Position numbers and translations under genes: made by a program. A stretch of 64,000 nucleotides of DNA from an uncultured Bacilli bacterium (GTDB lineage: Bacteria > Bacillota_I > Bacilli_A > RF39 > UBA660), in contig CAKOLL010000002.1 in the NCBI GenBank assembly GCA_934096295.1, forward strand, positions 136,966-200,965, read 5' to 3'. The notes under the pieces are model-generated. The model made no database searches and was not told where the DNA came from. It saw only the letters and a program-made list of their open reading frames with translations. Below, one piece after another: positions 1 to 62,606 of the stretch. Every line of letters starts with the position of its first letter. Position 1 is the stretch's first letter.

Positions 1-13
1 TAATGAAATTGAG

Positions 14-1012
14 GTGATTAATTTGAAAAAACAAGAATTAAATGAAAAAATTAATAATTATTTAAATAAAAATTATGATAATTTTGTATTTTTAATATCG
101 GGAAGAGCTACAATAGACTTAGCTATTAAAAATGCGATTGCTAATAATCCTAATTTAAAAAAAGCATATTTACCAAATTATATTTGTGATTCTATGGTTA
201 AACCATTTATTGATAATGGTATGATTGTTGAATTTTATGCAATAAATTTTGATGGTAATTGCTTTAATGTAAATACTAGTTCATTTGAAAATAAAGACAA
301 TATTATTGTTTTATATTGTGATTATTTTATTAGTTCAGAAAGAAATTATAAAATAATAACACAAAGTTTATCAAAAAACGCTATTCTTATTCATGATGTT
401 ACACATACATTATTTAGTGGAAATTTTCTAGATTATAGAGATGATTATTTAGTTTGTAGTATGAGAAAATGGTTCCCAATTGAGGATGGCGGTTTGTTTG
501 TTTGTAAAAATGAACTTACATTACATAGTTTTAAAAATGATTTAACTTATTTACTTTTCAAAGAAAAAGCTAAACAAGCTAAAGAACAATATTATGCCAA
601 TCCAAGTGATTATAATAAAAAAATATATGAAAGTTTGTCAGACCAAGCTGAGTCTGTTTTAAATGAAAACTATTCTTTGAATTTAATGTCTTTAAAAAAT
701 AGAAATTATTTAGATACAATTGATTTAGAGAAATATTTTCAAACAAAGAGGGAATTGTTTAATATGATAAAACAAAATTTATCTGAATATCAATTATTAG
801 CAGGAGCTAATGATATTAATTGTATATTTACCTTTCCTTTAGTAAATTTAAATAATAGAGATGAAATATTTAAAAAATTGAGAAATATTTTGATTAGGTG
901 TGCTGTAATGTGGGATTTTAACGATGATGAAATTTATAAAGAGTTTGTCGATAAAAGTATTTGTGTTGATATAAGTGAGAATACTATAATGCAATTAAGG
1001 AGGTATAGATAG
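14..1012 (+). CDS. PLP-dependent aminotransferase, DegT/DnrJ/EryC1-like fold (possibly 5'-partial at window edge; alternative TTG start at 23)
   Basis: 'FLISGRATIDLAIK...AYLPNYICDSMVKPF' matches the SGxxAL...P.fTF... block of DegT-family enzymes; 'CSMRKWFPIEDGG' fits the Schiff-base Lys region; N-terminal ~20 aa of a typical DegT seem missing so ORF may continue upstream of the window. Confidence 0.55.
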   Translation: MINLKKQELNEKINNYLNKNYDNFVFLISGRATIDLAIKNAIANNPNLKKAYLPNYICDSMVKPFIDNGMIVEFYAINFDGNCFNVNTSSFENKDNIIVLYCDYFISSERNYKIITQSLSKNAILIHDVTHTLFSGNFLDYRDDYLVCSMRKWFPIEDGGLFVCKNELTLHSFKNDLTYLLFKEKAKQAKEQYYANPSDYNKKIYESLSDQAESVLNENYSLNLMSLKNRNYLDTIDLEKYFQTKRELFNMIKQNLSEYQLLAGANDINCIFTFPLVNLNNRDEIFKKLRNILIRCAVMWDFNDDEIYKEFVDKSICVDISENTIMQLRRYR

Positions 1013-1013
1013 T

Positions 1014-1664
1014 ATGAAAAAAATATATTTGTTAAGTGGTCCAGGGACTAATGAGGGGTTTTCAGATGTTATTTCTAAAGAATTAAAAAAGGATTTGAAA
1101 GGAATGAAATCAATAACTTTCATTTCTTCATCACCTGCAAAACATGAAAAAAATATGAGTTTTGTTTATGGAAACGAGAAAATTACAGGTATGATTAATC
1201 ATTTGAAGTATTTTACAAATTTTGAAAAAGTAAATATAGCTGATGATGAAAATAGAGAACTAGATATTAATTCAGATATTATTTATTTACTGGGTGGAAA
1301 TTATGAAACTCAATTAAATTTTATTAAAGAAAATAAATTTGATGAAATACTTAAAAACTATGAAGGAGTTTTGCTTTGTACAAGTTGTGGAGCGATGAAT
1401 ATTGCAGAATGTGGTTATTATTCTAAAGATGATGATGTTGATGATAGTTTCTTTTATAATGGAATAGGGCTAACTAATATTACAATTGACCCACATTTTG
1501 ACATTAATAATTCTGTTCAAGTTAATGAAGCTAAAAAAATGTCTTTTAAACATGTTATTTATGGAGTTCCAAATTCTTCTTGTATAAAAATATGTAATAA
1601 AAAAATTGATATGATTGGAAAAATTTATGAATTTAATAATGGAAATATGATTGAACATAAATGA
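1014..1664 (+). CDS. peptidase S51 / type-1 glutamine-amidotransferase-like (dipeptidase E / cyanophycinase family)
   Basis: 'IYLLGGNYETQL' and 'GVLLCTSCGAMNIAE' resemble the GGNT...G(T/S)SAG nucleophile elbow of S51 peptidases; 2-bp gap from upstream gene. Confidence 0.5.
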   Translation: MKKIYLLSGPGTNEGFSDVISKELKKDLKGMKSITFISSSPAKHEKNMSFVYGNEKITGMINHLKYFTNFEKVNIADDENRELDINSDIIYLLGGNYETQLNFIKENKFDEILKNYEGVLLCTSCGAMNIAECGYYSKDDDVDDSFFYNGIGLTNITIDPHFDINNSVQVNEAKKMSFKHVIYGVPNSSCIKICNKKIDMIGKIYEFNNGNMIEHK

Positions 1665-1685
1665 AATGAAAGGAATATTTAATTT

Positions 1686-4028
1686 ATGATAAAATGGCTT
1701 GATGATGTTACAAATAAAATTATTGAGAACGCTGGTAATTCGCAGATTATAACTTGTCAATGTGGAATTTCTACCACGGGGGTCGCTCATATAGGTAATT
1801 TTAGAGAACCAATTATTACATATTTTGTTGCAGAAACATTAAAACAAAAAGGAAAAAAAGTTAGATTAGTTATGTCTTTTGATGATTTTGATAGATTTAA
1901 AAAAGTTCCTTATGGTGTACCTAGTGATTATGAAAAATATGTTGGAATGCCTACATGTTTTTTCCCAAGTCATATAAATTCAAGTATAAGTTATGCAAAG
2001 TTTTATGAAGATAAAATTATAGAAACTTTAAAAAGCTTGGATATTGATATGGAATATATTTATCAGTCAGAGAAGTATAAGGCTAAAGAATATTTAAGTG
2101 TCATTAAATCTGTTTTGGATCAAAAAGATGCTATATTTGATATAATATCAAAATATAAAACACAACAAATGACATATTATGATAAAAAACAATTTTTTCC
2201 AGTTAAAGTTTATTGTTCTTGTTGTCGAAAAGATAATACAACGATTATGGAATATTCTCAAGAAGAAAATTTAATTACTTATAAATGCTCTTGTGGTCAT
2301 ATGGAAACTGCTAGTATAGATAAATTAGATTTGAAATTGAAATTCAATGTAGAATGGCCTGCAAGATGGAATTATGAAAATGTAAATTTCGAACCGTGTG
2401 GAAAGGGGCATGCAGAAGAATTAGGTGTGTTAAATGTTTCAAAAGAAATAAATGAAAAAATTTATCATAAAAAGAATCCATGTATAGTTAAGTATGATTT
2501 TTTTAATTTAAAAGGTAATCAGGGAAGAATGAATAAAAATTCAAAAAATTTTATTGAAGTCAAGGACTTTTTAAACGTTATGCCTAAAGAAATGGTTTTG
2601 TATTATTTTATAGTTAATCCACCTAATAAGGAAATGTTTTTTTCTATCGAAGATGATATTCCAAAATTTTATGAAATGTTTGAAAAATGTGTTAATAATA
2701 ATTGTTTAGATTATGAAACTAAGAGTTTGTTAAAAATTGATTATAAAGAGGACTTAAAATTCTCAGATTTAATACGATATTTGCCAGTTGTAAACTTTGA
2801 TGTTGAAAATTTAAAAAAGATTCTTCAATTTAGTGAGACAAAGCATAATTTAGAAAAAATAACTTGTGCTATTAATTGGCTTAAATTTTATTCTAAAAAC
2901 AAATATTGGGTAATGAATGACAATATAAATTATGATTATTACAATACTCTGAGCAGTGAGAGAAAAAAAACACTAAGTTCTTTTATTAAATTAGCTAAAA
3001 AATATTCTAACTTTTTATCGTGGAAAGAATTTTTTGAAACATTTAAACAATATAATCCAGATTTAAAAATGTTTTATAAAGATTTTTATAGAATGATATT
3101 TGACTCTGAAACAGGAATACCAATTAAATCATTATTTGAATATTATGATATAGAAAAAATTATTAATTTAATACCTGTAGAAGAAAATATTAAAAATAAA
3201 AATCAAGTAGATGATACTGTAAGAATTATTCATTTATCTGATTTGCATTTTGATATTAATGATTCAAAAGAAATATTATCAAAAAAAATTCAAATGATAA
3301 CTGATTATCTAAAAAAAGGAAATTATGATAATTATTTGATTATAAGTGGAGATATAATATGTTTTTATAATAAAAAAGAAAATTTTGATATGGCTTATGA
3401 TTATTTAAGTTTTTTAGTTGACTCTTTACATATACCAGTTGAAAAAATACTTATTTGTACTGGAAATCATGAAATGATTAGTTTTGATAAATTCTTGAAT
3501 ACATATTTTGATAATTATAATATCTTTTTAAGAGAAAAATTACAAGATTTTAATGAATTTATGAAAAAACTTTGTGCATTTAATATTAATGAAAGTGAAG
3601 AACTGTATTATATGAATTTGGATCTACCTTTTAATACATTTGTAGTAAATTCATTGTTTGGAATTATAGATGGAAAAAAACAATTTTTCCAAAGTTCTGA
3701 ATTGATAGAAAGAGCTTTAAAAAAGGAAAAAATTAATAAAGATAAACTTGGGTTCGTAATATCTCATGCTCCATATGGATTTAACTCTAGTTTATTTGAC
3801 AATACAAATATTTTAAACTTTTTCAATTATAATATATGTGGGCATAATCATGAAAAAAGTATTATTTATAATGAAAATGGTCTTATTGATTTAGTTTCTG
3901 GTAGCAGTGATGGTTTAGTAGGAGATGAATATGATTTTAATTTATATGAATTAAAAAACGGTGTGTACGTAAAACGAATTTTTTGTAAGGATGATATAAC
4001 TACAGCTAGATTAAAAAGAATCAAATAA
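1686..4028 (+). CDS. divergent class-I lysyl-tRNA synthetase paralog fused to C-terminal calcineurin-like metallophosphoesterase
   Basis: N-terminal ~520 aa collinear with class-I LysRS (CGISTTGVAHIGNFRE, DDFDRFKKVP, zinc knuckle CSCCRK...CSCGH, EWPARW) but KMSKS degenerated to 'GRMNKNSKN'. C-terminal ~260 aa has MPE motifs 'IIHLSDLHFD', 'SGDII', 'CTGNHEM', 'CGHNHE'. Confidence 0.75.
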   Translation: MIKWLDDVTNKIIENAGNSQIITCQCGISTTGVAHIGNFREPIITYFVAETLKQKGKKVRLVMSFDDFDRFKKVPYGVPSDYEKYVGMPTCFFPSHINSSISYAKFYEDKIIETLKSLDIDMEYIYQSEKYKAKEYLSVIKSVLDQKDAIFDIISKYKTQQMTYYDKKQFFPVKVYCSCCRKDNTTIMEYSQEENLITYKCSCGHMETASIDKLDLKLKFNVEWPARWNYENVNFEPCGKGHAEELGVLNVSKEINEKIYHKKNPCIVKYDFFNLKGNQGRMNKNSKNFIEVKDFLNVMPKEMVLYYFIVNPPNKEMFFSIEDDIPKFYEMFEKCVNNNCLDYETKSLLKIDYKEDLKFSDLIRYLPVVNFDVENLKKILQFSETKHNLEKITCAINWLKFYSKNKYWVMNDNINYDYYNTLSSERKKTLSSFIKLAKKYSNFLSWKEFFETFKQYNPDLKMFYKDFYRMIFDSETGIPIKSLFEYYDIEKIINLIPVEENIKNKNQVDDTVRIIHLSDLHFDINDSKEILSKKIQMITDYLKKGNYDNYLIISGDIICFYNKKENFDMAYDYLSFLVDSLHIPVEKILICTGNHEMISFDKFLNTYFDNYNIFLREKLQDFNEFMKKLCAFNINESEELYYMNLDLPFNTFVVNSLFGIIDGKKQFFQSSELIERALKKEKINKDKLGFVISHAPYGFNSSLFDNTNILNFFNYNICGHNHEKSIIYNENGLIDLVSGSSDGLVGDEYDFNLYELKNGVYVKRIFCKDDITTARLKRIK

Positions 4029-4050
4029 TACAAATATTGTAGTATATGAC

Positions 4051-4079
4051 TTGCAAAATATATTTAGCAATGATATAAT
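4051..4079 (+). promoter_or_regulatory. sigma-A-type promoter for lysK (TTGCAA-17-TATAAT)
   Basis: ttgcaa aatatatttagcaatga tataat read directly. Confidence 0.5.
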
Positions 4080-4125
4080 ATGCGAAATTGATGGAAAATT
4101 AATTATTTTGAATGGGGGAATTATT

Positions 4126-5724
4126 ATGAATTGGGCTTTAGAAGAAGCAAAAAAATTAATTGAAAAGTATCCTGAAAAAGATACATTTGTAATTGCATCG
4201 GGGGTCAGTCCTTCGGGATATATACATATTGGAAATTTTAGAGAAATTGTTACAACGTTTTTTGTAGGTAAGGAATTAGAAAATTTAGGAAAAAAGGTTA
4301 GATTTATTTTGTCTTTTGATGATTTTGATAGATTTAGAAAAGTTCCTAATGGTATGCCAGAAAGTTATAGTAAGTATATAGGTATGCCATATACGAATAT
4401 ACCTAGTCCTTTTAGTAAAGACAAAACTTATGGAAAAGAACTTGAAGATATCTTTTTAGAAGAATTAAGTAGATTGGATATTTATCCAGAAATAATATAT
4501 CAAACTGAACAATATAAAAGTGGTAGATATGATAAAAAAATTATATTAGCTATGAATAAGAGAAAAGAAATTTTTGATATTATTTCAAAATTTAAAACGC
4601 AAGAATTTACTGTAGAGGATAAAAATAATTATTATCCAATAAGTTTATATTGTCAATGTTGTGGAAAAGATTCTACTACTATAGTAAATTATAATGAGAA
4701 AACTCATGAAGTTGAATATGAATGTGTATGTGGGAACCATAATATACAAAGAATAGAAAAAAGTGGAAATATTAAATTACAATGGAAAATAGATTGGCCT
4801 ATGAGATGGCAAGAAGAAGGTGTTATTTTTGAGCCGGGGGGTAGAGACCATTCTGCTGAAAATGGAAGTTATGCTGTTTCAAAAGTAATTTCAAAAGAGA
4901 TATTCGGATATGATGCGCCTTCATATATTGCATATGATTTCATAGGTATTAAAGGTGCTAATGGAAAAATGGCATCGTCAACAGGAAATGTATTAACTTT
5001 GACAGATTTATTAAGAGTTTATGATAAAAACATTGTTTTGTGGTTTTATGCTAAAAATAAACCAAACCATCAGTTTAATATAGCGCTTGATGAAGATGTT
5101 TTACGATATTATGCAGAATTTGATCGATTGGTAAAATCTTATTTTCAAGGAAAACTTGATGAAAATACAGCTAGCATAGTTTCATTGACAGGTGTGACAA
5201 AAAATTATACTAGTAATCCAGATTTTGGCAGTATTGCAAATTTTCTTCCGATGGTAAGTTATAACGAAAAAATGCTTGCTAATTTGTTATCTAAAGAAGA
5301 CATTGACTGTGAAAGTGTTTTGTTTAAAAAACGATTATTACAAGCTAAATGTTGGTTAGAAAAATACAATAATAGTAGAATCAATATATTAAATGAATTC
5401 AATCAAGATTTTTATGATAGTTTAAATGAAGAAGAAAAACAGTGGTTAAAAGATACTTTAGTGGTGTTGCAACAAAATTATAGTACAACTCAAGAATTAC
5501 AAAAAAGTTTGTATGCTGTTGTAAAAACTGGTGAAGAAGATTCTAAAATATTGAAAAGTAAACAAAAAAGGTATTTTCAAATAATTTATAATTTAATATT
5601 AGGAAAAGATAGTGGACCGAAAATGGGGTTATTATTATCAGCAATGAATTATGAAACGATAGAATCAAAATTACAAAAAAAACATGAATTAGTTCGTCAA
5701 AGAATAGATAAAAAGGATAATTAA
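4126..5724 (+). CDS. lysK: lysine--tRNA ligase, class I (canonical-looking)
   Basis: Near-collinear with archaeal/Borrelia-type LysRS-I: 'ASGVSPSGYIHIGNFRE', 'SFDDFDRFRKVP', zinc knuckle 'CQCCGK...CVCGN', 'KIDWPMRWQEEGVIFEPGGRDH', 'GKMASSTGN' (KMSKS). RBS GGGGGA before ATG 4126; ORF-track start 4051 probably too far upstream. Confidence 0.85.
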   Translation: MNWALEEAKKLIEKYPEKDTFVIASGVSPSGYIHIGNFREIVTTFFVGKELENLGKKVRFILSFDDFDRFRKVPNGMPESYSKYIGMPYTNIPSPFSKDKTYGKELEDIFLEELSRLDIYPEIIYQTEQYKSGRYDKKIILAMNKRKEIFDIISKFKTQEFTVEDKNNYYPISLYCQCCGKDSTTIVNYNEKTHEVEYECVCGNHNIQRIEKSGNIKLQWKIDWPMRWQEEGVIFEPGGRDHSAENGSYAVSKVISKEIFGYDAPSYIAYDFIGIKGANGKMASSTGNVLTLTDLLRVYDKNIVLWFYAKNKPNHQFNIALDEDVLRYYAEFDRLVKSYFQGKLDENTASIVSLTGVTKNYTSNPDFGSIANFLPMVSYNEKMLANLLSKEDIDCESVLFKKRLLQAKCWLEKYNNSRINILNEFNQDFYDSLNEEEKQWLKDTLVVLQQNYSTTQELQKSLYAVVKTGEEDSKILKSKQKRYFQIIYNLILGKDSGPKMGLLLSAMNYETIESKLQKKHELVRQRIDKKDN

Positions 5725-5726
5725 TA

Positions 5727-5763
5727 AAAAAGTAAAGAATGTAATTATTTGTTCTTTACTTTT
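5727..5763. terminator. bidirectional hairpin terminator between convergent lysK and XRE genes
   Basis: aaaaagtaaagaa-loop-ttctttactttt inverted repeat flanked by A/T runs. Confidence 0.55.
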
Positions 5764-5999
5764 TCTATTTTAATAGTATATCCGATTGGTCCAAGGATCC
5801 TTAATAGGCTTAGAATTGATGGAGAACAAGCTCCACATTCTATTCTAGCTATTTTTTCTCTTGAAACGCCAGAATATTTGGAAAATAAATCTTGTGTTAA
5901 GTTATTTTCTTTTCTAAAACTTATAAATTCCTTAATAAATATTTCATTTAATTCTTCTGGATTATAAGCAACCTCAATATAATTTTTATCATAGTCCAT
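5745..5999 (-). CDS. XRE-family helix-turn-helix transcriptional regulator
   Basis: 'LTQDLFSKYSGVSREKIARIECG...PSILSLLRI' classic HTH_3 pattern; divergent from AMP-ligase gene. Confidence 0.7.
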   Translation of the reverse strand: MDYDKNYIEVAYNPEELNEIFIKEFISFRKENNLTQDLFSKYSGVSREKIARIECGACSPSILSLLRILGPIGYTIKIEKVKNK

Positions 6000-6101: not shown

Positions 6102-7820
6102 ATGGAAAAATTTTATGACTATTATACGAAAGAAATGAAAGAAGATACATTACCGTCAGGTAATGAATATGACTTTTTACTTGAAAGAAACAAAAATCAT
6201 ATGAATGATACGGCGTTATCATTTGATACTAAGAAAATTTCATATGAAGAATTGCATGAAAGAATTGATGAATTTGCTCGTGCATTATATAAGAGAGGAA
6301 TAAGACAAGGTACTAGAGTTGGTATTGTAGTAGTTAATACCCCAGAATCTGTATATTTACTTTATGCTTTAAAAAAACTTGGAGCTCAAGTAATTGGGTT
6401 AAGTCCCCTTAATAATGAATATAAGATGCAAAGAGATATAGAAATGACAAAACCAGAATTTATCATTTCTGTAGATATGATGTATGGAAATTTCAAAAAT
6501 CCAGCAAAGAGTTTAAGTATAACACCAATACTTTATTCTCCATTAGAATCATTGGATAAAAATGGTTTGAAATTTCTTTATAATACGAAACAATTTATGG
6601 CTGGAAATAAAATCCTTAAAAAAGGTAATAATTTAATGAGTATTGTTAATGACGGGAAAGATTATGTTGATGTAAAATATCCTGAACATGTTAATGGTAC
6701 ATCAACAGATATTATGTTTACTGGAGGATCAAGTGGTGTTCATAAAGGTGTTGATTTAGATGGTGGTGCTTTAAATAGTGTTGTAAAAGCATTGGATTAT
6801 GTGTTAATACTAGAACCTGGAATGGTTCATCTAGGAAATATTCCATTTGGACATATGTGTTTTGGTAGATTAGTTCTTCATTATTCATTATGTAAAAATC
6901 TAGAATATGCTTTAACATTAAAAGCTATGCCAAAAGATTTTTATAGTGAACTTGTTAGAACACATGCAAATGGAGCAATGGGTGGTCCAGTTCATTGGGA
7001 AATATTAGCTCAAGATCCTAATTTAAGACAATGGACTTTGGAAAATTTAATACAACCTTTATCTGGTGGAGAAATGTTTAAACCACAAAAATTAAAAGAA
7101 GCAAATAAGGCTTTGGAATATGCTGGTTGTACTACTCCGATTGGAAATGGGTTAGGTTTAACAGAAATGTGGGCTCCAACTCATGTTTGTATGGGGGGAA
7201 AAAACACACCAGGAACTATTGGTTATCCAATTCCGTTTGTTAATTCAAAAATTGCTGATCCAAAAACTTTTGAAGATTTACCATTAGAAACTCCAGGAGT
7301 TTTGCTTGTAAATGGTCCTGGTATGATGCTTAGATATCATAATAATGAAGAAGAAACTAATGCAGTATTTGTATATGATGAAAATGGAGTTAAATGGTAT
7401 AATACTAAAGATGTTGCTGTTAAACATGCTAATGGTGAATATGAATTTGTAGGTCGTGTTAAAAGAAATTTTGTTTCTGGGGTTGATAATATTTATCCAG
7501 AACAAATTGAACAATTGCTTATTCAAATACCTGAAATTAGAGAAGTAATAGTTACATCAATTGCAGATGATAATGAACAATTCTTACCAAGTTATCATGT
7601 AAGTTTAAATGATTTTAATTGCGATAGAAAAGTATTAGAAAATAAAATGTTTGCTTTAATAGAAAAAACATTAGGTACTAGTGCTCTTCCTGGATATATT
7701 GAATATTATGAACAAGCACTTCCAAGAACTGATAATGGTAAACTTGATCCAAAAGCAATGGAAGCTAAAGATAAAGAAAGAATAGAAAATAAAGATTTAG
7801 TTAGAACAAGAGTTAGATAA
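6102..7820 (+). CDS. AMP-dependent synthetase/ligase (adenylate-forming enzyme, ANL superfamily)
   Basis: 'FTGGSSGVHKGV' corresponds to the (T/S)SGTTGxPKGV AMP-binding motif; size 572 aa. Confidence 0.7.
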   Translation: MEKFYDYYTKEMKEDTLPSGNEYDFLLERNKNHMNDTALSFDTKKISYEELHERIDEFARALYKRGIRQGTRVGIVVVNTPESVYLLYALKKLGAQVIGLSPLNNEYKMQRDIEMTKPEFIISVDMMYGNFKNPAKSLSITPILYSPLESLDKNGLKFLYNTKQFMAGNKILKKGNNLMSIVNDGKDYVDVKYPEHVNGTSTDIMFTGGSSGVHKGVDLDGGALNSVVKALDYVLILEPGMVHLGNIPFGHMCFGRLVLHYSLCKNLEYALTLKAMPKDFYSELVRTHANGAMGGPVHWEILAQDPNLRQWTLENLIQPLSGGEMFKPQKLKEANKALEYAGCTTPIGNGLGLTEMWAPTHVCMGGKNTPGTIGYPIPFVNSKIADPKTFEDLPLETPGVLLVNGPGMMLRYHNNEEETNAVFVYDENGVKWYNTKDVAVKHANGEYEFVGRVKRNFVSGVDNIYPEQIEQLLIQIPEIREVIVTSIADDNEQFLPSYHVSLNDFNCDRKVLENKMFALIEKTLGTSALPGYIEYYEQALPRTDNGKLDPKAMEAKDKERIENKDLVRTRVR

Positions 7821-7902
7821 AGCTACTGAAAAGTGGCTTTTCTTTTGCTTGAAAAAGAATGTTGGTTGTGATATCATTAAGTAAGAGTAGGAAGTGGTAT
7901 TC

Positions 7903-9732
7903 ATGGGATTTTATTTTTCAATAAGTGCATTGATTGTTATTATATTATTTACGTTTAATTTCTTATCAAAAGAAAGAGTAAATAATATTGAAACAAAAAT
8001 TTATAAGTATTTATTATTTTTAACATTATTTGGGCTATCTATGGACATAACTACTTGTGTTTTGTATAGAATGGGAATAAATATAAATGGTTTTTTATAT
8101 GCTTTAGGATCTAAATTGGTATTTGTATATTTTGTCTTATGGCTTTTGCTTTTTGCATATTATATAAAATGTATTAGCCTACCTTCTAGTGAAAATTATA
8201 AAAGTAAGATGATGAATACTTTTTATATGTTTGCTTTGTTTTTAATATTTATTGTACCTTTTATATTAATTTTACCAGTGGATTTTAAATTAGAAGGAGA
8301 TGTAATTGTTCCAAATGGACTTCCTGTTTTTATAACATATGGAGTTTGTTTAATTTTAATTGTTTATTCTGTTTATATTGCTATAAGATATCATAAAAAT
8401 ATTGAGGGAAAAAAATTAAGACCTTTGTATATTTTTTGTGTTTTAATGTTGTCAAATTTTATTGTTCAAAGTATGTTTCCTTCAGCTTTTTTAATTAATT
8501 ATTTATTATCATTAGTAGTTATAATAATGTATTTTACAATTGAAAATCCAGATGTTAAATTAATTAATCAATTAAATGAAGCTAAAACGCAAGCGGAAAA
8601 AGCAAACTTAGCTAAAACAGAGTTTTTATCAAGCATGTCTCATGAAATTAGAACACCTCTTAATGCAATCGTAGGTTTCAGTAATATGTTACTTGATGAT
8701 AAAAATTTGCCTGATAGTGCTAAAGAAGAAGTTAATGATATAGTAATGGCTTCAGATAATTTATTAGAAATAGTTAATGGTATTTTGGATATATCGAAGA
8801 TTGAGGCTGGTAAATTAGAAATTGTTAATACGGAATATGATTTTAATAAAGTTACAACAGAGTTAATTGCCCTTACTCGGGGAAGACTTGGGGATAAACC
8901 GATAGAGTTTATTACAAAAATTGATGAGTCAATTCCTCAGGTGTTATATGGAGATGCATCAAGGTTAAAACAAATATGTGTAAATATTTTAACTAATGCT
9001 GTTAAATATACTAAAGAAGGAAGTATTACTTTTAGTATTAATTCAGTTGTTAAAAATAATGTATGTAGATTGATTATTTCAGTTGAAGATACAGGAATAG
9101 GAATTAAACAAGAAAACTTAAGTAAGTTATTTAATAAGTTTGAAAGATTGGATTTAAAAGATAATGTTACAATAGAAGGTACAGGTTTAGGACTTGCTAT
9201 AACTAAGAAACTTGTTGATATGATGAATGGAAAGATAGTTGTGCAAAGTGTATTTGGAAAAGGGTCTAAGTTTACAGTATCAATAGATCAAAGAATAGTT
9301 AAAAATCCAACTATAAAAGTTGAAGCAATAGATACAACCCATGAAAAGATTGAAGTTAAAAATAAAACTGTTTTAGTTGTAGATGATAACAAAATAAATC
9401 TTAAAGTAGCTGAGAGATTATTACAAACTTATGGTGTTGATGTGGAATGTGTAGAAAGTGGGTTTATTTGTATTGATAACTTGAAAAGTGGTAAGAAATA
9501 TGATTTAATATTAATGGATGATATGATGCCAAAAATGAGTGGTGTAGAAACATTACAAAAGATAAAAGTTGAAATACCAGAATTTGATATTCCGGTGATA
9601 GCATTAACAGCGAATGCATTAACAGGAATGAGAGAAAAGTATTTGGCAGATGGATTTAACGATTATCTAGCTAAACCAATTAACAAAGATGAATTAAATA
9701 GAGTTATAAATGAATATTTAAATAAGGAGTGA
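7903..9732 (+). CDS. hybrid sensor histidine kinase (multi-TM sensor + HisKA + HATPase + C-terminal receiver)
   Basis: ~6 hydrophobic helices N-terminal; H-box '[11 protein letters not shown]'; G-boxes 'DTGIGI', 'GTGLGLAI'; C-terminal REC '[11 protein letters not shown]...[13 protein letters not shown]'. Confidence 0.85.
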
Positions 9733-17050: not shown

Positions 17051-18607
17051 ATGAATAAAAAAACAAGAATAATTATTTTATCGATACTTGCTGTGTTAAT
17101 TGTTATTGCTTTATCAGTGGGATTAACTACAGCTTTTATGAAACCTGTAGAACAAGGTGGTAATTTAACTGAAGTTGCATTATCTAGTTGTGCAAAGATT
17201 AAGTTAACTAGTACTAGTTCTGTTAATCTTTCTAATTCATATCCAATGAGTAGAAATAAAGGATTGCAAACAACTCCTTATTCTTTTACTGTTACTAGTT
17301 ATTGTGATACATATGTAGGTTTTAGTTTATATATTGCTACATTAAGTACAAATACATTAGATGCTTCAAATATTCACTATATTTTAACATATAAAGGTAG
17401 TAAAGAAACTATAGTAGAAGGTATATTATCTAGTGCTATGAATGGAGTAAGTGATTTTAGTGATTCAGAAAAAACTGAATTAAATACTGGGTTAAAAGGC
17501 ACTTATGGTAGTATTTATAAAATTCATAATGAATCTGTAGCATTAAAAGGTAGTAAAGAATATGATTTATATTTGTATGTTGATGAAAATGTAACAAATA
17601 CTACGATGGGAAAAACATTTAGTGCAGGTGTTGCAGTTAAATCTTATGATAGAGAAAAAATTGGTTTAGAAATATGTAATAGTGGTCAAAATTTAAAAGA
17701 ATGTGTTATTTCATATGCAAATTTAGGTAGTAATGTTTCAAAAATATATTATCATGATTCAACACTAACAAATGGAGCAGGGGACAATAGCTATAGATAT
17801 GCAGGACCAAGTGATGAAGTAAATAATTTTGTGTGTTTTGGAACAAATGAGAGTCCATGTCCAACAGATAATTTATATCGTATTATCGGAGTAATAGATG
17901 ATAAAGTGAAATTAATCAAATATGATTATGCAACAAGTACATTACTTGGAACAGATGGTGATTATTCACAAAATGCCGAAGAAGCAGGAATGCCAACAAA
18001 TCATTATAAAGGAACAAAAGAAATGTCAGACATCGGAGTATATTATTGGAATTATAAGGCTACAAACAAAGCTACAAATACATGGAGTACAAGTTTATTA
18101 AATAAAACAAATTTAAATACAAACTTTATAAATAATATTGGAACAGAATGGTCAAATAAGATAGCAACAACGATATGGAAAGTAGGAGGAAATACAAATG
18201 CAAAAATAAGAAATGTAGTTCCATCAGTAGCATACCAAAATGAAATAGTAAATCCGGTTCCAGGCCAATATTCAACAACAGGAGAAACAGAATATGAAGC
18301 CAAAATAGGATTAATGTATGTATCGGATTATGGATTTGCAGCAAGTCCAGAATCATGGACAACAATAATGGGTGATTATCATAAAGTTGTAAATAATAAT
18401 TGGATGTACATGGGAGCTTGGGAATGGACTATTTCCCGTCGTGCGGACCGTTCGGACATTGCTTTCGTTGTAGGCCGTGGTGGTTCCGTGAGCGACGACT
18501 TCGTGGACATCGGCATCTTTGCGGTTCGGTCGTCCTTCAATCTCGAGTCTTCTGTGACTTATGTCTCTGGGTCTGGACTTAGATTTGATCCGATTGTAAT
18601 AAATTAA
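17051..18607 (+). CDS. secreted/surface protein, paralog family copy B (longer N-terminal region; GC-rich recoded 3' end)
   Basis: Signal/anchor helix; same conserved blocks as copy A (DNSYRYAG, PCPTDNLYRIIG, LIKYDYA, TWSTSLLNKTNLNTNFINNIG, WKVGGNT, AKIGLMYVSDYGFAAS, NNNWMYMG). Confidence 0.7.
   Translation: MNKKTRIIILSILAVLIVIALSVGLTTAFMKPVEQGGNLTEVALSSCAKIKLTSTSSVNLSNSYPMSRNKGLQTTPYSFTVTSYCDTYVGFSLYIATLSTNTLDASNIHYILTYKGSKETIVEGILSSAMNGVSDFSDSEKTELNTGLKGTYGSIYKIHNESVALKGSKEYDLYLYVDENVTNTTMGKTFSAGVAVKSYDREKIGLEICNSGQNLKECVISYANLGSNVSKIYYHDSTLTNGAGDNSYRYAGPSDEVNNFVCFGTNESPCPTDNLYRIIGVIDDKVKLIKYDYATSTLLGTDGDYSQNAEEAGMPTNHYKGTKEMSDIGVYYWNYKATNKATNTWSTSLLNKTNLNTNFINNIGTEWSNKIATTIWKVGGNTNAKIRNVVPSVAYQNEIVNPVPGQYSTTGETEYEAKIGLMYVSDYGFAASPESWTTIMGDYHKVVNNNWMYMGAWEWTISRRADRSDIAFVVGRGGSVSDDFVDIGIFAVRSSFNLESSVTYVSGSGLRFDPIVIN
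18432..18582 (+). other. ~150-bp GC-rich (~55% GC) compositional island inside the 3' end of paralog B CDS
   Basis: tcccgtcgtgcggaccgttcggacattgctttcgttgtaggccgtggtggttccgtgagcgacgacttcgtggacatcggcatctttgcggttcggtcgtcc... uses CGT/GCG/GGC/GAC codons absent from surrounding AT-rich code; still in frame and still homologous to tails of copies A and C. Confidence 0.85.
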
Positions 18608-37792: not shown

Positions 37793-39478
37793 ATGGTTAA
37801 AAAGGTAATTATTTTAGTTTTAAGTATGTTTAGCTTTATCGTAAATACACAATGTGTTTCGTTTAAGGGCGGAGATGTTATTGATGGTGTTTATGTTTTG
37901 AAAATTAAAAGTAATGGAGAAAAAGAATATAAAAAGGGACAATTTATAGTAGATGAGTATGGGGATTATGTTTATTGTTTAGAACCTTTTATCAAAGTAA
38001 ATAATAGTTCTAAATATGATGAATACTCAGATAATTTTGCTAAACCTTTGGGTATAAGTGATGAATTGTGGCAAAAAATAAATTTAATAAGTTATTATGG
38101 TTATAAATATAAGGATAGTGTTCATAATCATAATGAAGCAAAATGGTACTATATTACTCAAATGATGATATGGCAAGTTGTTAGTCCAGAATCTCGATTT
38201 TATTTTACGGATAGTTTTAAAGGAAATATTAATGCTACACTTTTTGAAAATGAAATAAAAGAGATAAATGATTTAATAAGTAATCATTTTGTAATACCAG
38301 AATTTAAAGTTCCAGATGCATATATCGGGGATACTCTTACAATAATTGATCAAAATGGAGTTTTAAGTAAATTTTCGAGTGATGATTTTGTAAGTATTAA
38401 AGGAAATATTTTAACTATAGATATAAAGAAAAAAGAAAACACTTTTACTTTAAGAAAAAGTACTAATAATAAAGCTTATATCTTTGTAAGTAGCGATAGC
38501 CAAAATATTTTAAAAGGTAAAATGGATGTTTTAGTTAAAGCTAATTATATTATTAAAGGTAAACCAGTTTTAGGTAAAATTAGTTTAAAAAAATACGGAG
38601 AAATATACAATAATGGAAATTATTCTAAAGAAGTTTTAGAAGGAGTAACGTTTACTTTGTATGATGAAAATAGGAATATCTTAAGGGATGTGGTTACGAA
38701 CAAGGATGGAGAAGCTGTTTTCGGTGATTTACCTGAAGGGAAATATTATATTAAAGAAACTGGAAGTATTGATGGATATGTTTTAGATGATAGAGAATAT
38801 GAAGTAATATTAAAGTTAAATAAAAATAATATAATGATAGATGTGTTTTTAGAAATAGAGAATGTTTTAGATAAAGGTAAGTTAGTTATTAAGAAAATAG
38901 ATTTTGATAATGGATTTCCTTTAGAAAATACAAAATTTGTAATTATGAAGGATGATGTAATAATACATGAGGGAGTAACTAATAAAGATGGAATACTTGA
39001 AGTAAAAGATTTACCGTTTGGAAAATACTTAATTAAAGAAATAGAAGCAAAGAGTGGGTATGTACTTGATGAGATGGTTTATGAGGTAAAGGTAGATGGT
39101 AATAATAAAGATATTTTGTTAGAAATAAAAAATGAACTTGAAAAGGGAAAGCTTGTTATAAAAAAAGTTAATGCTAGTAATAATGAAGCTATAAGTAATA
39201 CGGAATTTGTTATTATAAAAGATGGTATTATAATATATAAAGGAGTTACAAATGAATATGGAATACTTGAGGTGAATGATCTTGTTTTAGGTAAATATGT
39301 TATTAGAGAAACAAGAGCTAGTGATGGATTTATATTAAATGAAGAAGAAATTGATATTACATTAGATAAAGATATAAATTATATAGAAATATCTAATATT
39401 CCTGATACTGATATACAAGTTAATAAGTTAATTTTATATTTTGATGATAAGTTGAAAAATAAAAAAGTTTTGGTTTAA
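37793..39478 (+). CDS. secreted adhesin-like protein: putative N-terminal thioester domain + three Cna-B/SpaA-type prealbumin-fold repeats; no sortase motif
   Basis: Signal peptide; 'YVYCLEPF' (Cys) and 'YITQMMIWQV' (TQxxIW Gln motif) as in TED thioester domains; three repeats each with 'GKLVIKK...GVTNKDGILEV.DLP.GKY.IKE....GYVLD'. Confidence 0.6.
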   Translation: MVKKVIILVLSMFSFIVNTQCVSFKGGDVIDGVYVLKIKSNGEKEYKKGQFIVDEYGDYVYCLEPFIKVNNSSKYDEYSDNFAKPLGISDELWQKINLISYYGYKYKDSVHNHNEAKWYYITQMMIWQVVSPESRFYFTDSFKGNINATLFENEIKEINDLISNHFVIPEFKVPDAYIGDTLTIIDQNGVLSKFSSDDFVSIKGNILTIDIKKKENTFTLRKSTNNKAYIFVSSDSQNILKGKMDVLVKANYIIKGKPVLGKISLKKYGEIYNNGNYSKEVLEGVTFTLYDENRNILRDVVTNKDGEAVFGDLPEGKYYIKETGSIDGYVLDDREYEVILKLNKNNIMIDVFLEIENVLDKGKLVIKKIDFDNGFPLENTKFVIMKDDVIIHEGVTNKDGILEVKDLPFGKYLIKEIEAKSGYVLDEMVYEVKVDGNNKDILLEIKNELEKGKLVIKKVNASNNEAISNTEFVIIKDGIIIYKGVTNEYGILEVNDLVLGKYVIRETRASDGFILNEEEIDITLDKDINYIEISNIPDTDIQVNKLILYFDDKLKNKKVLV

Positions 39479-58763: not shown

Positions 58764-58840
58764 GGACCTCTAGCTCAGTTGGTTAGAGCCCCCGGCTCAT
58801 AACCGGGTTGTCGCAGGTTCGAGTCCTGCGAGGTCCACCA
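58764..58840 (+). tRNA. tRNA with CAT anticodon (Met-type; D-arm/acceptor resemble Firmicutes tRNA-Ile2/lysidine)
   Basis: Cloverleaf: acceptor ggacctc/gaggtcc, D-arm tagctcagttggttagagc, anticodon stem cccgg-ctCATaa-ccggg, T-arm caggttcgagtcctg, CCA encoded. Confidence 0.85.
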
Positions 58841-58846
58841 TTTTAT

Positions 58847-58931
58847 GCAAGCGTGGCGGAACTGGTAGACGCGCTAGACTTAGGATCTAGTGGAATATTC
58901 CGTGGGGGTTCAAGTCCCTTCGCTTGCACCA
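58847..58931 (+). tRNA. tRNA-Leu (anticodon TAG), long variable arm
   Basis: acceptor gcaagcg/cgcttgc, anticodon stem ctaga-cTTAGga-tctag, variable arm tggaatattccgt, T-arm gggggttcaagtccc, CCA encoded. Confidence 0.85.
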
Positions 58932-59030
58932 GATTGATAGGAAACTCGAACTTTTATAAATTCGAGAGTAATAAATTACTAACAGAAATGTTAGTTTTTT
59001 TGTTATTTAAGAAAGGAAAAGTGATGAGTT

Positions 59031-59300
59031 ATGACAATAGAAACTAAAGAACTTGTAATAAGTGAAGAATTAAAAAGAAAGGTAGAAATGATTTGTAGGT
59101 TTGCTTATGTTGACTACACTATCACAAATGGAAATATTAAAAGTATTAAAAACACAAATATTGCTATGGTTAAACCTCATATAGTAAAAATTAAAGGTAT
59201 TGATTATTTAATATTTGATGAATGTGATGATATTTTTATAAATGGTTATAAAGAGAAAATTAAGTTTAAAGATTTTGAAGAATATATTAAAACCCACTAA
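59031..59300 (+). CDS. small hypothetical protein
   Basis: 89-aa ORF, no motif. Confidence 0.3.
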   Translation: MTIETKELVISEELKRKVEMICRFAYVDYTITNGNIKSIKNTNIAMVKPHIVKIKGIDYLIFDECDDIFINGYKEKIKFKDFEEYIKTH

Positions 59301-59440
59301 AACCTTGACAAATCAAGAATAAATGTATATAGTATAGAACTAATAAAAGCAAGCAGTATCGCTTTTTAAAGGGGAAAGAGAGGTACTTCTATGATTAAAA
59401 GCACATATAACATATTTAAAATTTATACTTATTTATTTAA

Positions 59441-62606
<3,166 letters not shown>

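Follow-up and report, generated by a model that had tools for sequence, protein, structure and literature searches.

The 64-kb window analysed here (64,000 nucleotides of contig CAKOLL010000002.1 of an uncultured Bacilli bacterium) carries four closely packed genes on the same strand at nt 1-5724, where the local GC content is 25%; the remainder is ordinary Firmicute chromosome encoding PolC, DnaE, MutS, Lon, MurF and pyruvate phosphate dikinase. The third of the four open reading frames (ORFs), ORF A, encodes a paralog of class I lysyl-tRNA synthetase (LysRS-I), which we call LysRS*, fused to a C-terminal metallophosphoesterase (MPE) domain; the fourth, ORF B, encodes an orthodox LysRS-I (Table 1). 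Two adjacent class I LysRS genes had already been recognised in an initial annotation of this DNA, and all motifs that it quoted are found where it had placed them. Judged from the sequences of ORF A and its relatives, the LysRS*-MPE fusion is a rare, conserved and re-engineered copy of LysRS-I within an undescribed multi-gene enzyme module.

Table 1. Genes, domains and motifs at nt 1-5724 of the window (amino acid positions refer to ORF A)
Feature	Position	Strand	Remarks
DegT/DnrJ/EryC1-like protein of pyridoxal phosphate (PLP) fold, 332 aa	14..1012	+	module member in about half of the lineages
Peptidase_S51-family protein, 216 aa	1014..1664	+	PF03575, E 2.5e-12; module member
ORF A, LysRS-I paralog (LysRS*) fused to metallophosphoesterase	1686..4028	+	780 aa plus stop
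LysRS* part, aa 1-495	1686..3170	+	Rossmann core, zinc knuckle, C-terminal domains homologous to LysRS-I; TIGR00467, 1IRX
CGISTTG (aa 26-32)...HIGN (aa 35-38)	1761..1799	+	HIGH-type motif kept; preceding P-S fixed as T-T (P30T, S31T)
Zinc-knuckle cysteines C177, C180, C201, C203	2214..2297	+	invariant in paralogs and canonical enzymes
F220	2343..2345	+	replaces canonical Trp (P. horikoshii W218); fixed in all paralogs
CGKGH (aa 238-242)	2397..2411	+	stands for canonical GG(R/K)DH; His (P. horikoshii H240) kept, Asp (D239) lost
RMNKNS (aa 281-286), variant KMSKS loop	2526..2543	+	K281R, S284K relative to canonical K-M-S-S-S
Linker, aa 496-512	3171..3221	+	sequence variable; low model confidence
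MPE domain, aa 513-780	3222..4025	+	five metal-binding motifs
MPE motif HLSDLHFD (aa 516-523)	3231..3254	+	
MPE motif SGDII (aa 554-558)	3345..3359	+	
MPE motif GNHE (aa 593-596)	3462..3473	+	
MPE motif ISHAP (aa 692-696)	3759..3773	+	
MPE motif GHNHE (aa 719-723)	3840..3854	+	
Intergenic region with promoter-like site (4051-4079) and ribosome-binding site	4029..4125	+	without terminator
ORF B, orthodox class I lysyl-tRNA synthetase, 532 aa	4126..5724	+	TIGR00467 395.9 bits

Both ORF A and ORF B match the class I LysRS profiles. ORF A matches Pfam tRNA-synt_1f (PF01921) over aa 3-339 (E 1.5e-84, 284.5 bits) and NCBIfam TIGR00467 (lysS_arch) over aa 3-489 with 258 bits (cut-off 147.55), and its aa 1-335 match the LysRS of Pyrococcus horikoshii (1IRX; E 2e-61). 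The C-terminal part matches Pfam Metallophos (PF00149) over aa 513-723 (E 2.5e-11, 44.8 bits, gathering score 21.5). The assignment of the two halves, for which the initial annotation had proposed profile searches, is thus confirmed. LysRS* resembles the known class I enzymes (LysK, such as P. horikoshii 1IRX, the Borrelia burgdorferi enzyme and Bacillus cereus LysRS1) in its full-length homology and in HIGN, the Cys4 zinc site, E41, H242 and Y270/F272; it differs from them by ten fixed substitutions, by the C-terminal MPE and by standing always within an enzyme module.

The active-site signature was defined by comparing 18 paralogs with 175 canonical LysRS-I sequences. At least 90% conservation in both sets is seen at 43 positions, including G27, G32, H35, G37 and N38 (the last three in HIGN), the four zinc cysteines, W224, R227 and W228, as well as E236, G239, H242, Y270 and F272; E41 is kept in the paralogs too, and so is most of the lysine pocket. 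HIGN is, like the zinc site, invariant in paralogs and canonical enzymes. Fixed differences number only ten (P30T, S31T, T44I, R72K, W220F, G238C, D241G, K281R, S284K and V325I), and seven of these (30, 31, 220, 238, 241, 281 and 284) lie in or beside active-site motifs, at sites where 81-97% of the 175 canonical enzymes carry the consensus residue. The canonical catalytic consensus (G-x-S-P-S-G, the pocket Trp, G-(R/K)-D-H and K-M-S-S-S) is consequently absent from ORF A and from all 18 paralogs. The upstream copy had been described as degenerate, with its KMSKS motif lost. Neither description fits: the substitutions are invariant in 18 paralogs that are only 40-60% identical, and the loop is changed to R-M-(N/S)-K-(N/D)-S, by which the classical second lysine is regained. 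Four distant unfused proteins (P0149, P0150, P0152 and P0160) share seven of the ten changes, have S or A in place of D241 and branch beside the fusion clade, indicating that a wider LysRS* family exists.

When ORF A is mapped onto 1IRX, F220 corresponds to W218, G241 to D239 (of G-K-D-H), H242 to H240 and Y270 to Y268 of the P. horikoshii enzyme. We take W218, H240 and Y268 to be residues that line the lysine side chain, and in the class I GxD(H/Q) motif it is presumably the acidic residue that contacts the ATP ribose; literature searches found no confirmation for either assignment.

Very few proteins share this architecture. Among 5.8 billion protein clusters, only 14 full-length fusions were identified, with lengths of 768-783 aa and identities between 99% and 40%; every one stems from a metagenome assembly or a metagenome-assembled genome (MAG). 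Two close unfused relatives were identified as well. HMMER searches over 1.84 billion representatives at 50% identity returned only two full-length fusions, one close unfused relative and one MPE fragment above the background of canonical LysRS-I, and the fusion-type MPE is present in only 3 of 185,579 GTDB species representatives. Four further loci are on JGI/ENA metagenome contigs, one of them (L071) titled human gut metagenome. The fusion is not an assembly artefact: the 99%-identical cluster (P0001) has 36 member sequences, and 13 other clusters contain full-length fusions as well. Carriage by mobile elements was considered and rejected, the fusion being found neither in IMG/VR viral contigs nor in PLSDB plasmids. 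One carrier has GerA-type spore-germination genes beside the module; P0050, the LysRS-I of this carrier, has index entries in 148 blocks of the collection, indicating that the module is common where this organism occurs. The same 1.84-billion library contains other natural fusions of class I LysRS (P0176, P0188, P0189, P0164, P0209, P0177 and P0196), with B3_4 (N- or C-terminal), tRNA_bind or an N-terminal aldehyde dehydrogenase (about 1000 aa in total) as partners; none of them includes a metallophosphoesterase. The initial annotation knew of no described fusion of this kind, and this holds: the fusion has no name in any source, and our literature searches returned nothing about a LysRS-MPE fusion or about paralogs of class I LysRS, the only LysRS paralog described in the papers searched being the class II enzyme PoxA/EpmA. 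We know of no described family of class I LysRS paralogs.

ORF A is a conserved gene and is not decaying. A signature fixed in 18 paralogs at 40-60% mutual identity points to selection. The dN/dS ratio (nonsynonymous over synonymous substitution rates) is about 0.2-0.3, as estimated from a single close pair, the only one that offered usable differences; in the comparison with L069, the window past residue 495 is invalid, as the linker has an indel there. Identities between loci are 44-60% for LysRS*, 35-48% for the MPE and 63-76% for the neighbouring orthodox LysRS-I, indicating that LysRS* is an old paralog that evolves more rapidly than the LysRS-I next to it and has diverged together with it. 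That ORF A is a functionless relic left by a tandem duplication is extremely improbable, given intact full-length fusion ORFs in about eight lineages, down to 40% identity and with invariant catalytic motifs. Two observations could be read in favour of such a relic. Within a run of nine T in the fusion gene (L107 8510-8570, codon 306), two otherwise identical assemblies of one species (L070 and L108) have a deletion of one nucleotide that splits the fusion into ORFs of 308 aa and 456 aa and leaves LysRS-I intact; a homopolymer deletion of this kind may stem from a sequencing error or from phase variation, or it may represent a null allele, the last meaning that the fusion is dispensable. The P0004 lineage has a His to Tyr change in MPE motif I (HLSDLYFD) and a DegT-like gene in two fragments (L001 8398-9337, L016 3156-3968), and the module may be eroding there.

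The phosphoesterase half belongs to the PF00149 superfamily by profile score, by its five motifs (DxH, GD, GNH[ED], H, GHxH) and by its alpha/beta sandwich fold. Twelve fusion MPE domains keep HLSDLHFD, SGDIxCFYN, C(T/S)GNH(E/D), the (S/T)H motif and CGHx(H). A linker of 17 residues joins the MPE to LysRS*; in the structural model A2, the predicted local distance difference test (pLDDT) is below 50 at model residues 7-19, which correspond to this linker. Fold comparison of the model ranks Lmo2642 (2xmo; score 18.0) first, followed by purple acid phosphatase (7ov8; 17.2), Rv0805 (3ib7; 17.1), GpdQ (2dxl; 16.7) and acid sphingomyelinase/SMPDL3B (15.0-15.2), with the ApaH-like Shewanella phosphatase (1v73; 8.4) and the Ap4A hydrolase Spr1479 (3qfm; 8.0) far behind. 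The modelled fold thus matches class III cyclic-nucleotide, glycerophosphodiester and acid phosphatase types. Sequence identity to this group (Lmo2642, Rv0805, GpdQ, purple acid phosphatase, SMPDL3 and the anti-phage enzymes DS-8/DS-9) is only 11-18%, the scores stay well short of the cut-offs of these families, and the MPE sequence profile found nothing better in the PDB than SbcD (E 0.85). There is also weak similarity to LpxG, an example of MPEs able to cleave nucleotide-sugar pyrophosphates.

The initial annotation had described the MPE as ApaH-like and had proposed, from the established ability of several aminoacyl-tRNA synthetases including LysRS to make Ap4A from the adenylate, an enzyme of dinucleoside-polyphosphate metabolism or signalling as one alternative, which would amount to a bifunctional Ap4A synthetase and hydrolase. 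ApaH, the symmetrical Ap4A hydrolase of the PPP family, does belong to the same binuclear metallophosphoesterase superfamily as the MPE. However, ApaH models gave no match to the MPE even at E<=10, and identity as an ApaH/PPP-family Ap4A hydrolase is rejected by hidden Markov models (HMMs), by motif (the PPP set being GDxHG, GDxVDRG and GNHE) and by fold. Nucleotide hydrolases are encoded close to the module in some loci: a NUDIX gene follows LysRS-I in L004-L006 (L004 13969-14535), and a type I phosphodiesterase/nucleotide pyrophosphatase (PF01663) lies beside the module in L018 (7914-9038) and L013 (371-1504), which would fit such a metabolism. Still, an Ap4A enzyme is very improbable: it would leave without a role the nucleotidyltransferase, reductase, radical-SAM-like, S51 and DegT-like genes that are co-conserved with the fusion, and a single polypeptide that both made and hydrolysed one product would run a futile cycle unless it were regulated.

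The best named model for all three versions of the MPE is the anti-phage phosphoesterase DS-9 (NF053862). DS-8 and DS-9 are SMPDL3A-like metallophosphatases of undetermined substrate that are experimentally needed for defence (PMC13092281). ORF A could accordingly belong to a module for phage defence or stress in which a nucleotide signal or an antiviral nucleotide is produced or degraded, with the LysRS-like part as sensor or effector; in line with this, the locus is variable between relatives, and integrase, Fic and antitoxin genes border the copies of some genomes. We regard this as distinctly improbable. The DS-9 scores (32-54 bits) are far below the cut-off of 420 and are restricted to profile positions 184-335, the generic N-terminal half of the MPE fold, and the module has no HAD gene; the MPE is thus not a DS-9 member. 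PADLOC gave no match for the fusion, the S51, DegT-like, nucleotidyltransferase-reductase and radical-SAM-like proteins or ORF B, its only match being a weak one to an upstream Rel protein (PDC-S33, E 7e-8). The absence of the fusion from viral contigs and plasmids also speaks against defence, and the gene content looks metabolic.

ORF B starts at the ATG at 4126, as its N-terminus (MNWALEEAKK) agrees with that of homologues and a GGGGGA ribosome-binding site lies upstream. It scores 376.7 bits with PF01921, carries SGVSPSG, HIGN, GGRDH and KMASS and thereby shows every canonical catalytic consensus, in agreement with the initial annotation, which had regarded it as canonical. It is 78% identical to the LysRS-I of MAG GCA_017410525.1, and its clade has no clade-specific or resistance-type change at any conserved site. 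Most loci have an orthodox LysRS-I adjoining the module; among the ORFs examined in the 64-kb window, none was recognised as a class II lysS. The promoter proposed for ORF B (TTGCAA-17-TATAAT, with an upstream TG) is present in the gap, but promoter-like matches are no commoner in this 25% GC DNA than in shuffled sequence (81 versus 64.5 +/- 8.2), so that the site is no evidence by itself. No terminator was found between ORF A and ORF B. Neither a T-box nor a lysine riboswitch was detected by Rfam at gathering threshold in the window and nine related loci.

The loci of nine paralogs and of other relatives were scanned with HMMs and queries built from our own alignments; module assignments cover the loci with sufficiently long contigs. 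LysRS* is accompanied by a nucleotidyltransferase (NTase) of the pol-beta type (about 215 aa) with the signature VGS...DxD...D, a short aldo-keto reductase (AKR, about 240 aa), a CxxxCxxC protein of about 400 aa with weak similarity to SplB-like radical-SAM families and an S51 peptidase, which adjoins the paralog in nearly every locus and is present in one or two copies. Altogether the module comprises six to eight genes, most of them without family assignment, and the linkage spans lineages of 23-44% GC. The gene order varies and the set is kept: in L007 and L017, for example, LysRS-I comes first and the fusion last. A GNAT gene follows LysRS-I in L106-109 and L009. PDB sequence searches with the NTase-like, radical-SAM-like and S51 proteins gave no matches. 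In L073, remnants of transposase-like ORFs (6588-8571) separate LysRS* from the DegT-like gene, and the orthodox LysRS-I (675 aa) has a C-terminal extension similar to tRNA_bind, with an overall identity of 59% to P0164, a fusion of LysRS-I and tRNA_bind.

Several partners are fused in some loci and separate in others. NTase and AKR form one protein in L001, L004, L013, L016, L018, L071 and L106, and AKR is joined to the radical-SAM-like protein in L056 and L058. Most informative for ORF A are L054, L055 and L073 (41-44% GC) and L056 and L057 (30% GC), which have an unfused LysRS* with the same signature and a stand-alone MPE. This MPE belongs to one subfamily with that of the fusion (hhalign probability 99.9%, E 3e-34) and shares HLSDLHFDIGD, SGDxxFYxN and GNHE with it; the split-MPE loci also hold a homologue of the 332-aa protein (probability 100%, E 9e-44), followed by an orthodox LysRS-I. 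The fusion in the window hence joins genes that are separate neighbours elsewhere, and this split/fused relationship is strong evidence, from genome comparison, that LysRS* and MPE act in one process. A search for a split MPE beside the unfused paralog P0016 found a downstream protein of 230 aa, which is unrelated and was ruled out.

The 332-aa neighbour folds as a nucleotide-sugar aminotransferase, with sugar aminotransferases ranking above SepSecS. Distant relatives (about 30% identity) are found in a glycan cluster together with ATP-grasp, GNAT, FemAB, DegT and glycosyltransferase genes. In six lineages, the first gene of the operon encodes a truncated Rel/SpoT (HD, synthetase and TGS domains, about 480 aa; TIGR00691 525 bits): L001 4281-5720, L004 4223-5665, L011 5169-6641, L013 1830-3269, L014 1-927 and L056 8650-10050. 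The L056 version is a divergent protein with HD and TGS domains, whose gene shares 50 nt with the beginning of the paralog gene. Rel may be either a syntenic anchor or a member of the module; it is absent from the arrangements of L007/L017 and L106-109.

MAG GCA_017410525.1 (L009 2949-11578, contig JAFQQQ010000002.1) offers a comparison with a different gene content. Its order is syntenic with the window (Rel, then S51, LysRS-I, AMP-binding gene and histidine kinase), and its S51 is 40% identical to that of the window. The slot between the truncated Rel (HD-SYN-TGS) and S51-LysRS-I is occupied by a different cassette that encodes a class II LysRS/EpmA-like core of 386 aa, a B12-radical-SAM enzyme, a methyltransferase, a HAD protein and a 342-aa protein. 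Homology of the two cassettes was considered and rejected: only S51 and LysRS-I are shared, and the radical-SAM enzymes and the proteins of about 340 aa are unrelated. As two unrelated lysine-activating paralogs occupy the same slot, lysine activation seems to be the constant of the locus.

ORF A is best read as a neofunctionalised LysRS-I paralog joined to a binuclear phosphodiesterase of nucleotide type and working in a pathway module, neither a second housekeeping synthetase nor an Ap4A enzyme. That it is no ordinary translation factor, as the initial annotation had supposed, is borne out by the fixed, altered active-site signature and the conserved enzyme module, which make a role in ordinary translation unlikely; its further proposal of a metabolic enzyme acting on aminoacyl nucleotides is compatible with the evidence. 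More specifically, we favour, tentatively and with slightly less than even confidence, a lysine-activating ligase in the style of MshC or AgnA that is combined with a phosphodiesterase and takes part in a pathway for a small molecule, which is probably linked to a nucleotide or a sugar. Membership in this ligase class would be in keeping with the observed core with its fixed active-site changes, the conserved linkage to other enzymes and the adjacent orthodox LysRS-I.

For this ligase we infer the chemical steps, the nature of the acceptor and the product as follows. LysRS* would bind ATP and lysine (or a close analogue) and form the aminoacyl-adenylate. Its re-tooled pocket, with PS changed to TT before HIGN, Trp to Phe, the GxDH Asp lost and the R-M-x-K-x-S loop, would then hand the lysyl group not to tRNA-Lys but to a non-canonical acceptor that its partners produce or keep bound, namely the pol-beta NTase, the short AKR, the SplB-like radical-SAM protein and, in many lineages, the DegT-like sugar aminotransferase. 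This same intermediate may contain a phosphodiester or pyrophosphate bond that the fused MPE cleaves, such as that of a nucleotide handle which the NTase has attached, and the S51 peptidase (with GNAT in some loci) may trim, unmask or detoxify the lysyl compound. ORF B would either be the LysRS in regular use in the lineage, and then the origin of the paralog, or serve as an additional copy for protection.

Such a logic has precedents. MshC, a CysRS paralog that acts as Cys:GlcN-Ins ligase, and GluQRS/YadB, a GluRS paralog of queuosine modification, keep amino acid activation and use an acceptor other than the tRNA 3' end. The likeness is one of analogy only: the parent synthetases are different, neither is fused to a phosphoesterase, and GluQRS has no anticodon-binding domain whereas LysRS* retains its own. 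EpmA/PoxA, a class II LysRS paralog that ligates beta-lysine to EF-P, and LysX, a fusion of MprF and class II LysRS, are LysRS-derived proteins used outside canonical translation as well, and the EpmA-like protein in the equivalent slot of L009 adds to the resemblance; they differ in their class II fold and in their partners, the aminomutase EpmB or MprF instead of the module found here. In the agrocin 84 cluster, AgnA, an adenylation enzyme resembling an aminoacyl-tRNA synthetase, is encoded together with the immunity LeuRS AgnB2, a complete synthetase of like or related specificity, and with hydrolase or acetyltransferase genes (PMC8323819), and the proposed role of AgnA would parallel that of LysRS*.

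Several observations weigh against this ligase. No product, acceptor or exporter was recognised in the module. The MPE is lost in two or three paralog lineages (P0014, whose contig stops just past the paralog gene, P0016 and P0148) and thus is accessory, and about half of the lineages have no DegT-like gene or only fragments of it, so that an amine from this enzyme cannot be the universal acceptor. The roles given to D241 and W220 are presumed ones. In addition, LysRS* is homologous to LysRS-I over its entire C-terminal region, where the latter has its tRNA-binding domains, which leaves room for a tRNA-directed role.

This last point leads to a lysylation directed at nucleic acid or protein, which we consider unlikely. 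LysRS* would dock on a tRNA or on a protein that mimics tRNA (EF-P) and would couple lysine or a derivative of it to a modified nucleoside or residue, in the manner of GluQRS or EpmA, or the radical-SAM and PLP enzymes would convert the lysine of a charged tRNA; the substrate of the MPE would be an RNA end or a by-product of nucleotide type. ARAGORN found no dedicated tRNA gene near the module, the only one in the vicinity being a tRNA-Lys(UUU) 8 kb downstream in L001. The ranking of the 332-aa fold and the patchy presence of Rel, both described above, also argue against directed lysylation, and the NTase, the reductase and the S51 peptidase would be left unexplained.

A narrower version of the favoured small-molecule pathway is a lysyl-nucleoside or lysyl-nucleotide antimetabolite which, comparable to agrocin 84, microcin C or puromycin, would mimic lysyl-adenylate or a tRNA 3' end carrying an amino acid; we consider it rather unlikely. 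The combination of LysRS*, LysRS-I, peptidase and sometimes GNAT recalls, by analogy, the producer clusters of aminoacyl-nucleotide antibiotics: LysRS*, LysRS-I, S51 and GNAT would be the counterparts of the agrocin 84 genes and of MccF and MccE of microcin C. LysRS* would use or acylate an adenine nucleotide with a modified ribose, supplied by the radical-SAM, reductase, NTase and aminotransferase partners; a modified ribose is proposed because the GxDH Asp, which presumably contacts the hydroxyls of the ATP ribose, is lost in LysRS*. The fused phosphodiesterase would release or mature the compound, and self-protection of the producing cell would fall to the orthodox LysRS-I together with the S51 peptidase and GNAT. 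On the other hand, there is no sequence relationship to agrocin 84 or microcin C, no carrier moiety was recognised in the module (nor, as said, an exporter), and MccF is a peptidase of family S66, different from S51. If true, this would be the first antibiotic pathway derived from an aminoacyl-tRNA synthetase that is built on class I LysRS.

Alternatively, LysRS* could be the immunity factor itself: the module would make an inhibitor of LysRS or translation, LysRS* would be the drug-insensitive enzyme, the MPE would destroy a toxic phosphate-linked compound and ORF B would be the sensitive housekeeping enzyme. Self-immunity synthetases (AgnB2, AbmK, and MetRS and AsnRS linked to biosynthetic gene clusters) together with hydrolase and acetyltransferase genes are established in such clusters (PMC8323819), the active-site substitutions of LysRS* could exclude an inhibitor, and the GNAT genes behind LysRS-I would fit. 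But known immunity synthetases stay near canonical, whereas every LysRS* has lost the GxDH Asp and altered the KMSKS loop; LysRS* also evolves faster than its ORF B-type neighbours, and no other ligase of the module could attach lysine. This makes immunity quite unlikely.

Elsewhere, recruited synthetase paralogs (MshC, GluQRS, EpmA and AgnA) each opened new biochemistry. With a signature of ten sites centred on the active site, a naturally split or fused phosphodiesterase and a portable module, the LysRS* family is a defined and testable target: its study could reveal a new lysine-containing metabolite or modification, and could show how the active site of a class I LysRS is re-specified.

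Two large ORFs elsewhere in the window, at 17051-18607 (518 aa) and 37793-39478 (561 aa), are without NCBIfam match at E<=1e-10. At 58764-61381, tRNA-Met(CAT) and tRNA-Leu(TAG) are followed by a large serine recombinase of 630 aa (XisF/CcrB-like), a probable boundary of an integrated element. Behind ORF B, a small HTH_3 regulator is encoded on the opposite strand (5745-5999, -), followed by an AMP-binding, acyl-CoA-ligase-like enzyme (6102-7820, +). As L004 and L009 likewise have the AMP-binding gene downstream, along with one for a hybrid histidine kinase, these genes are probably syntenic flank and not part of the module.

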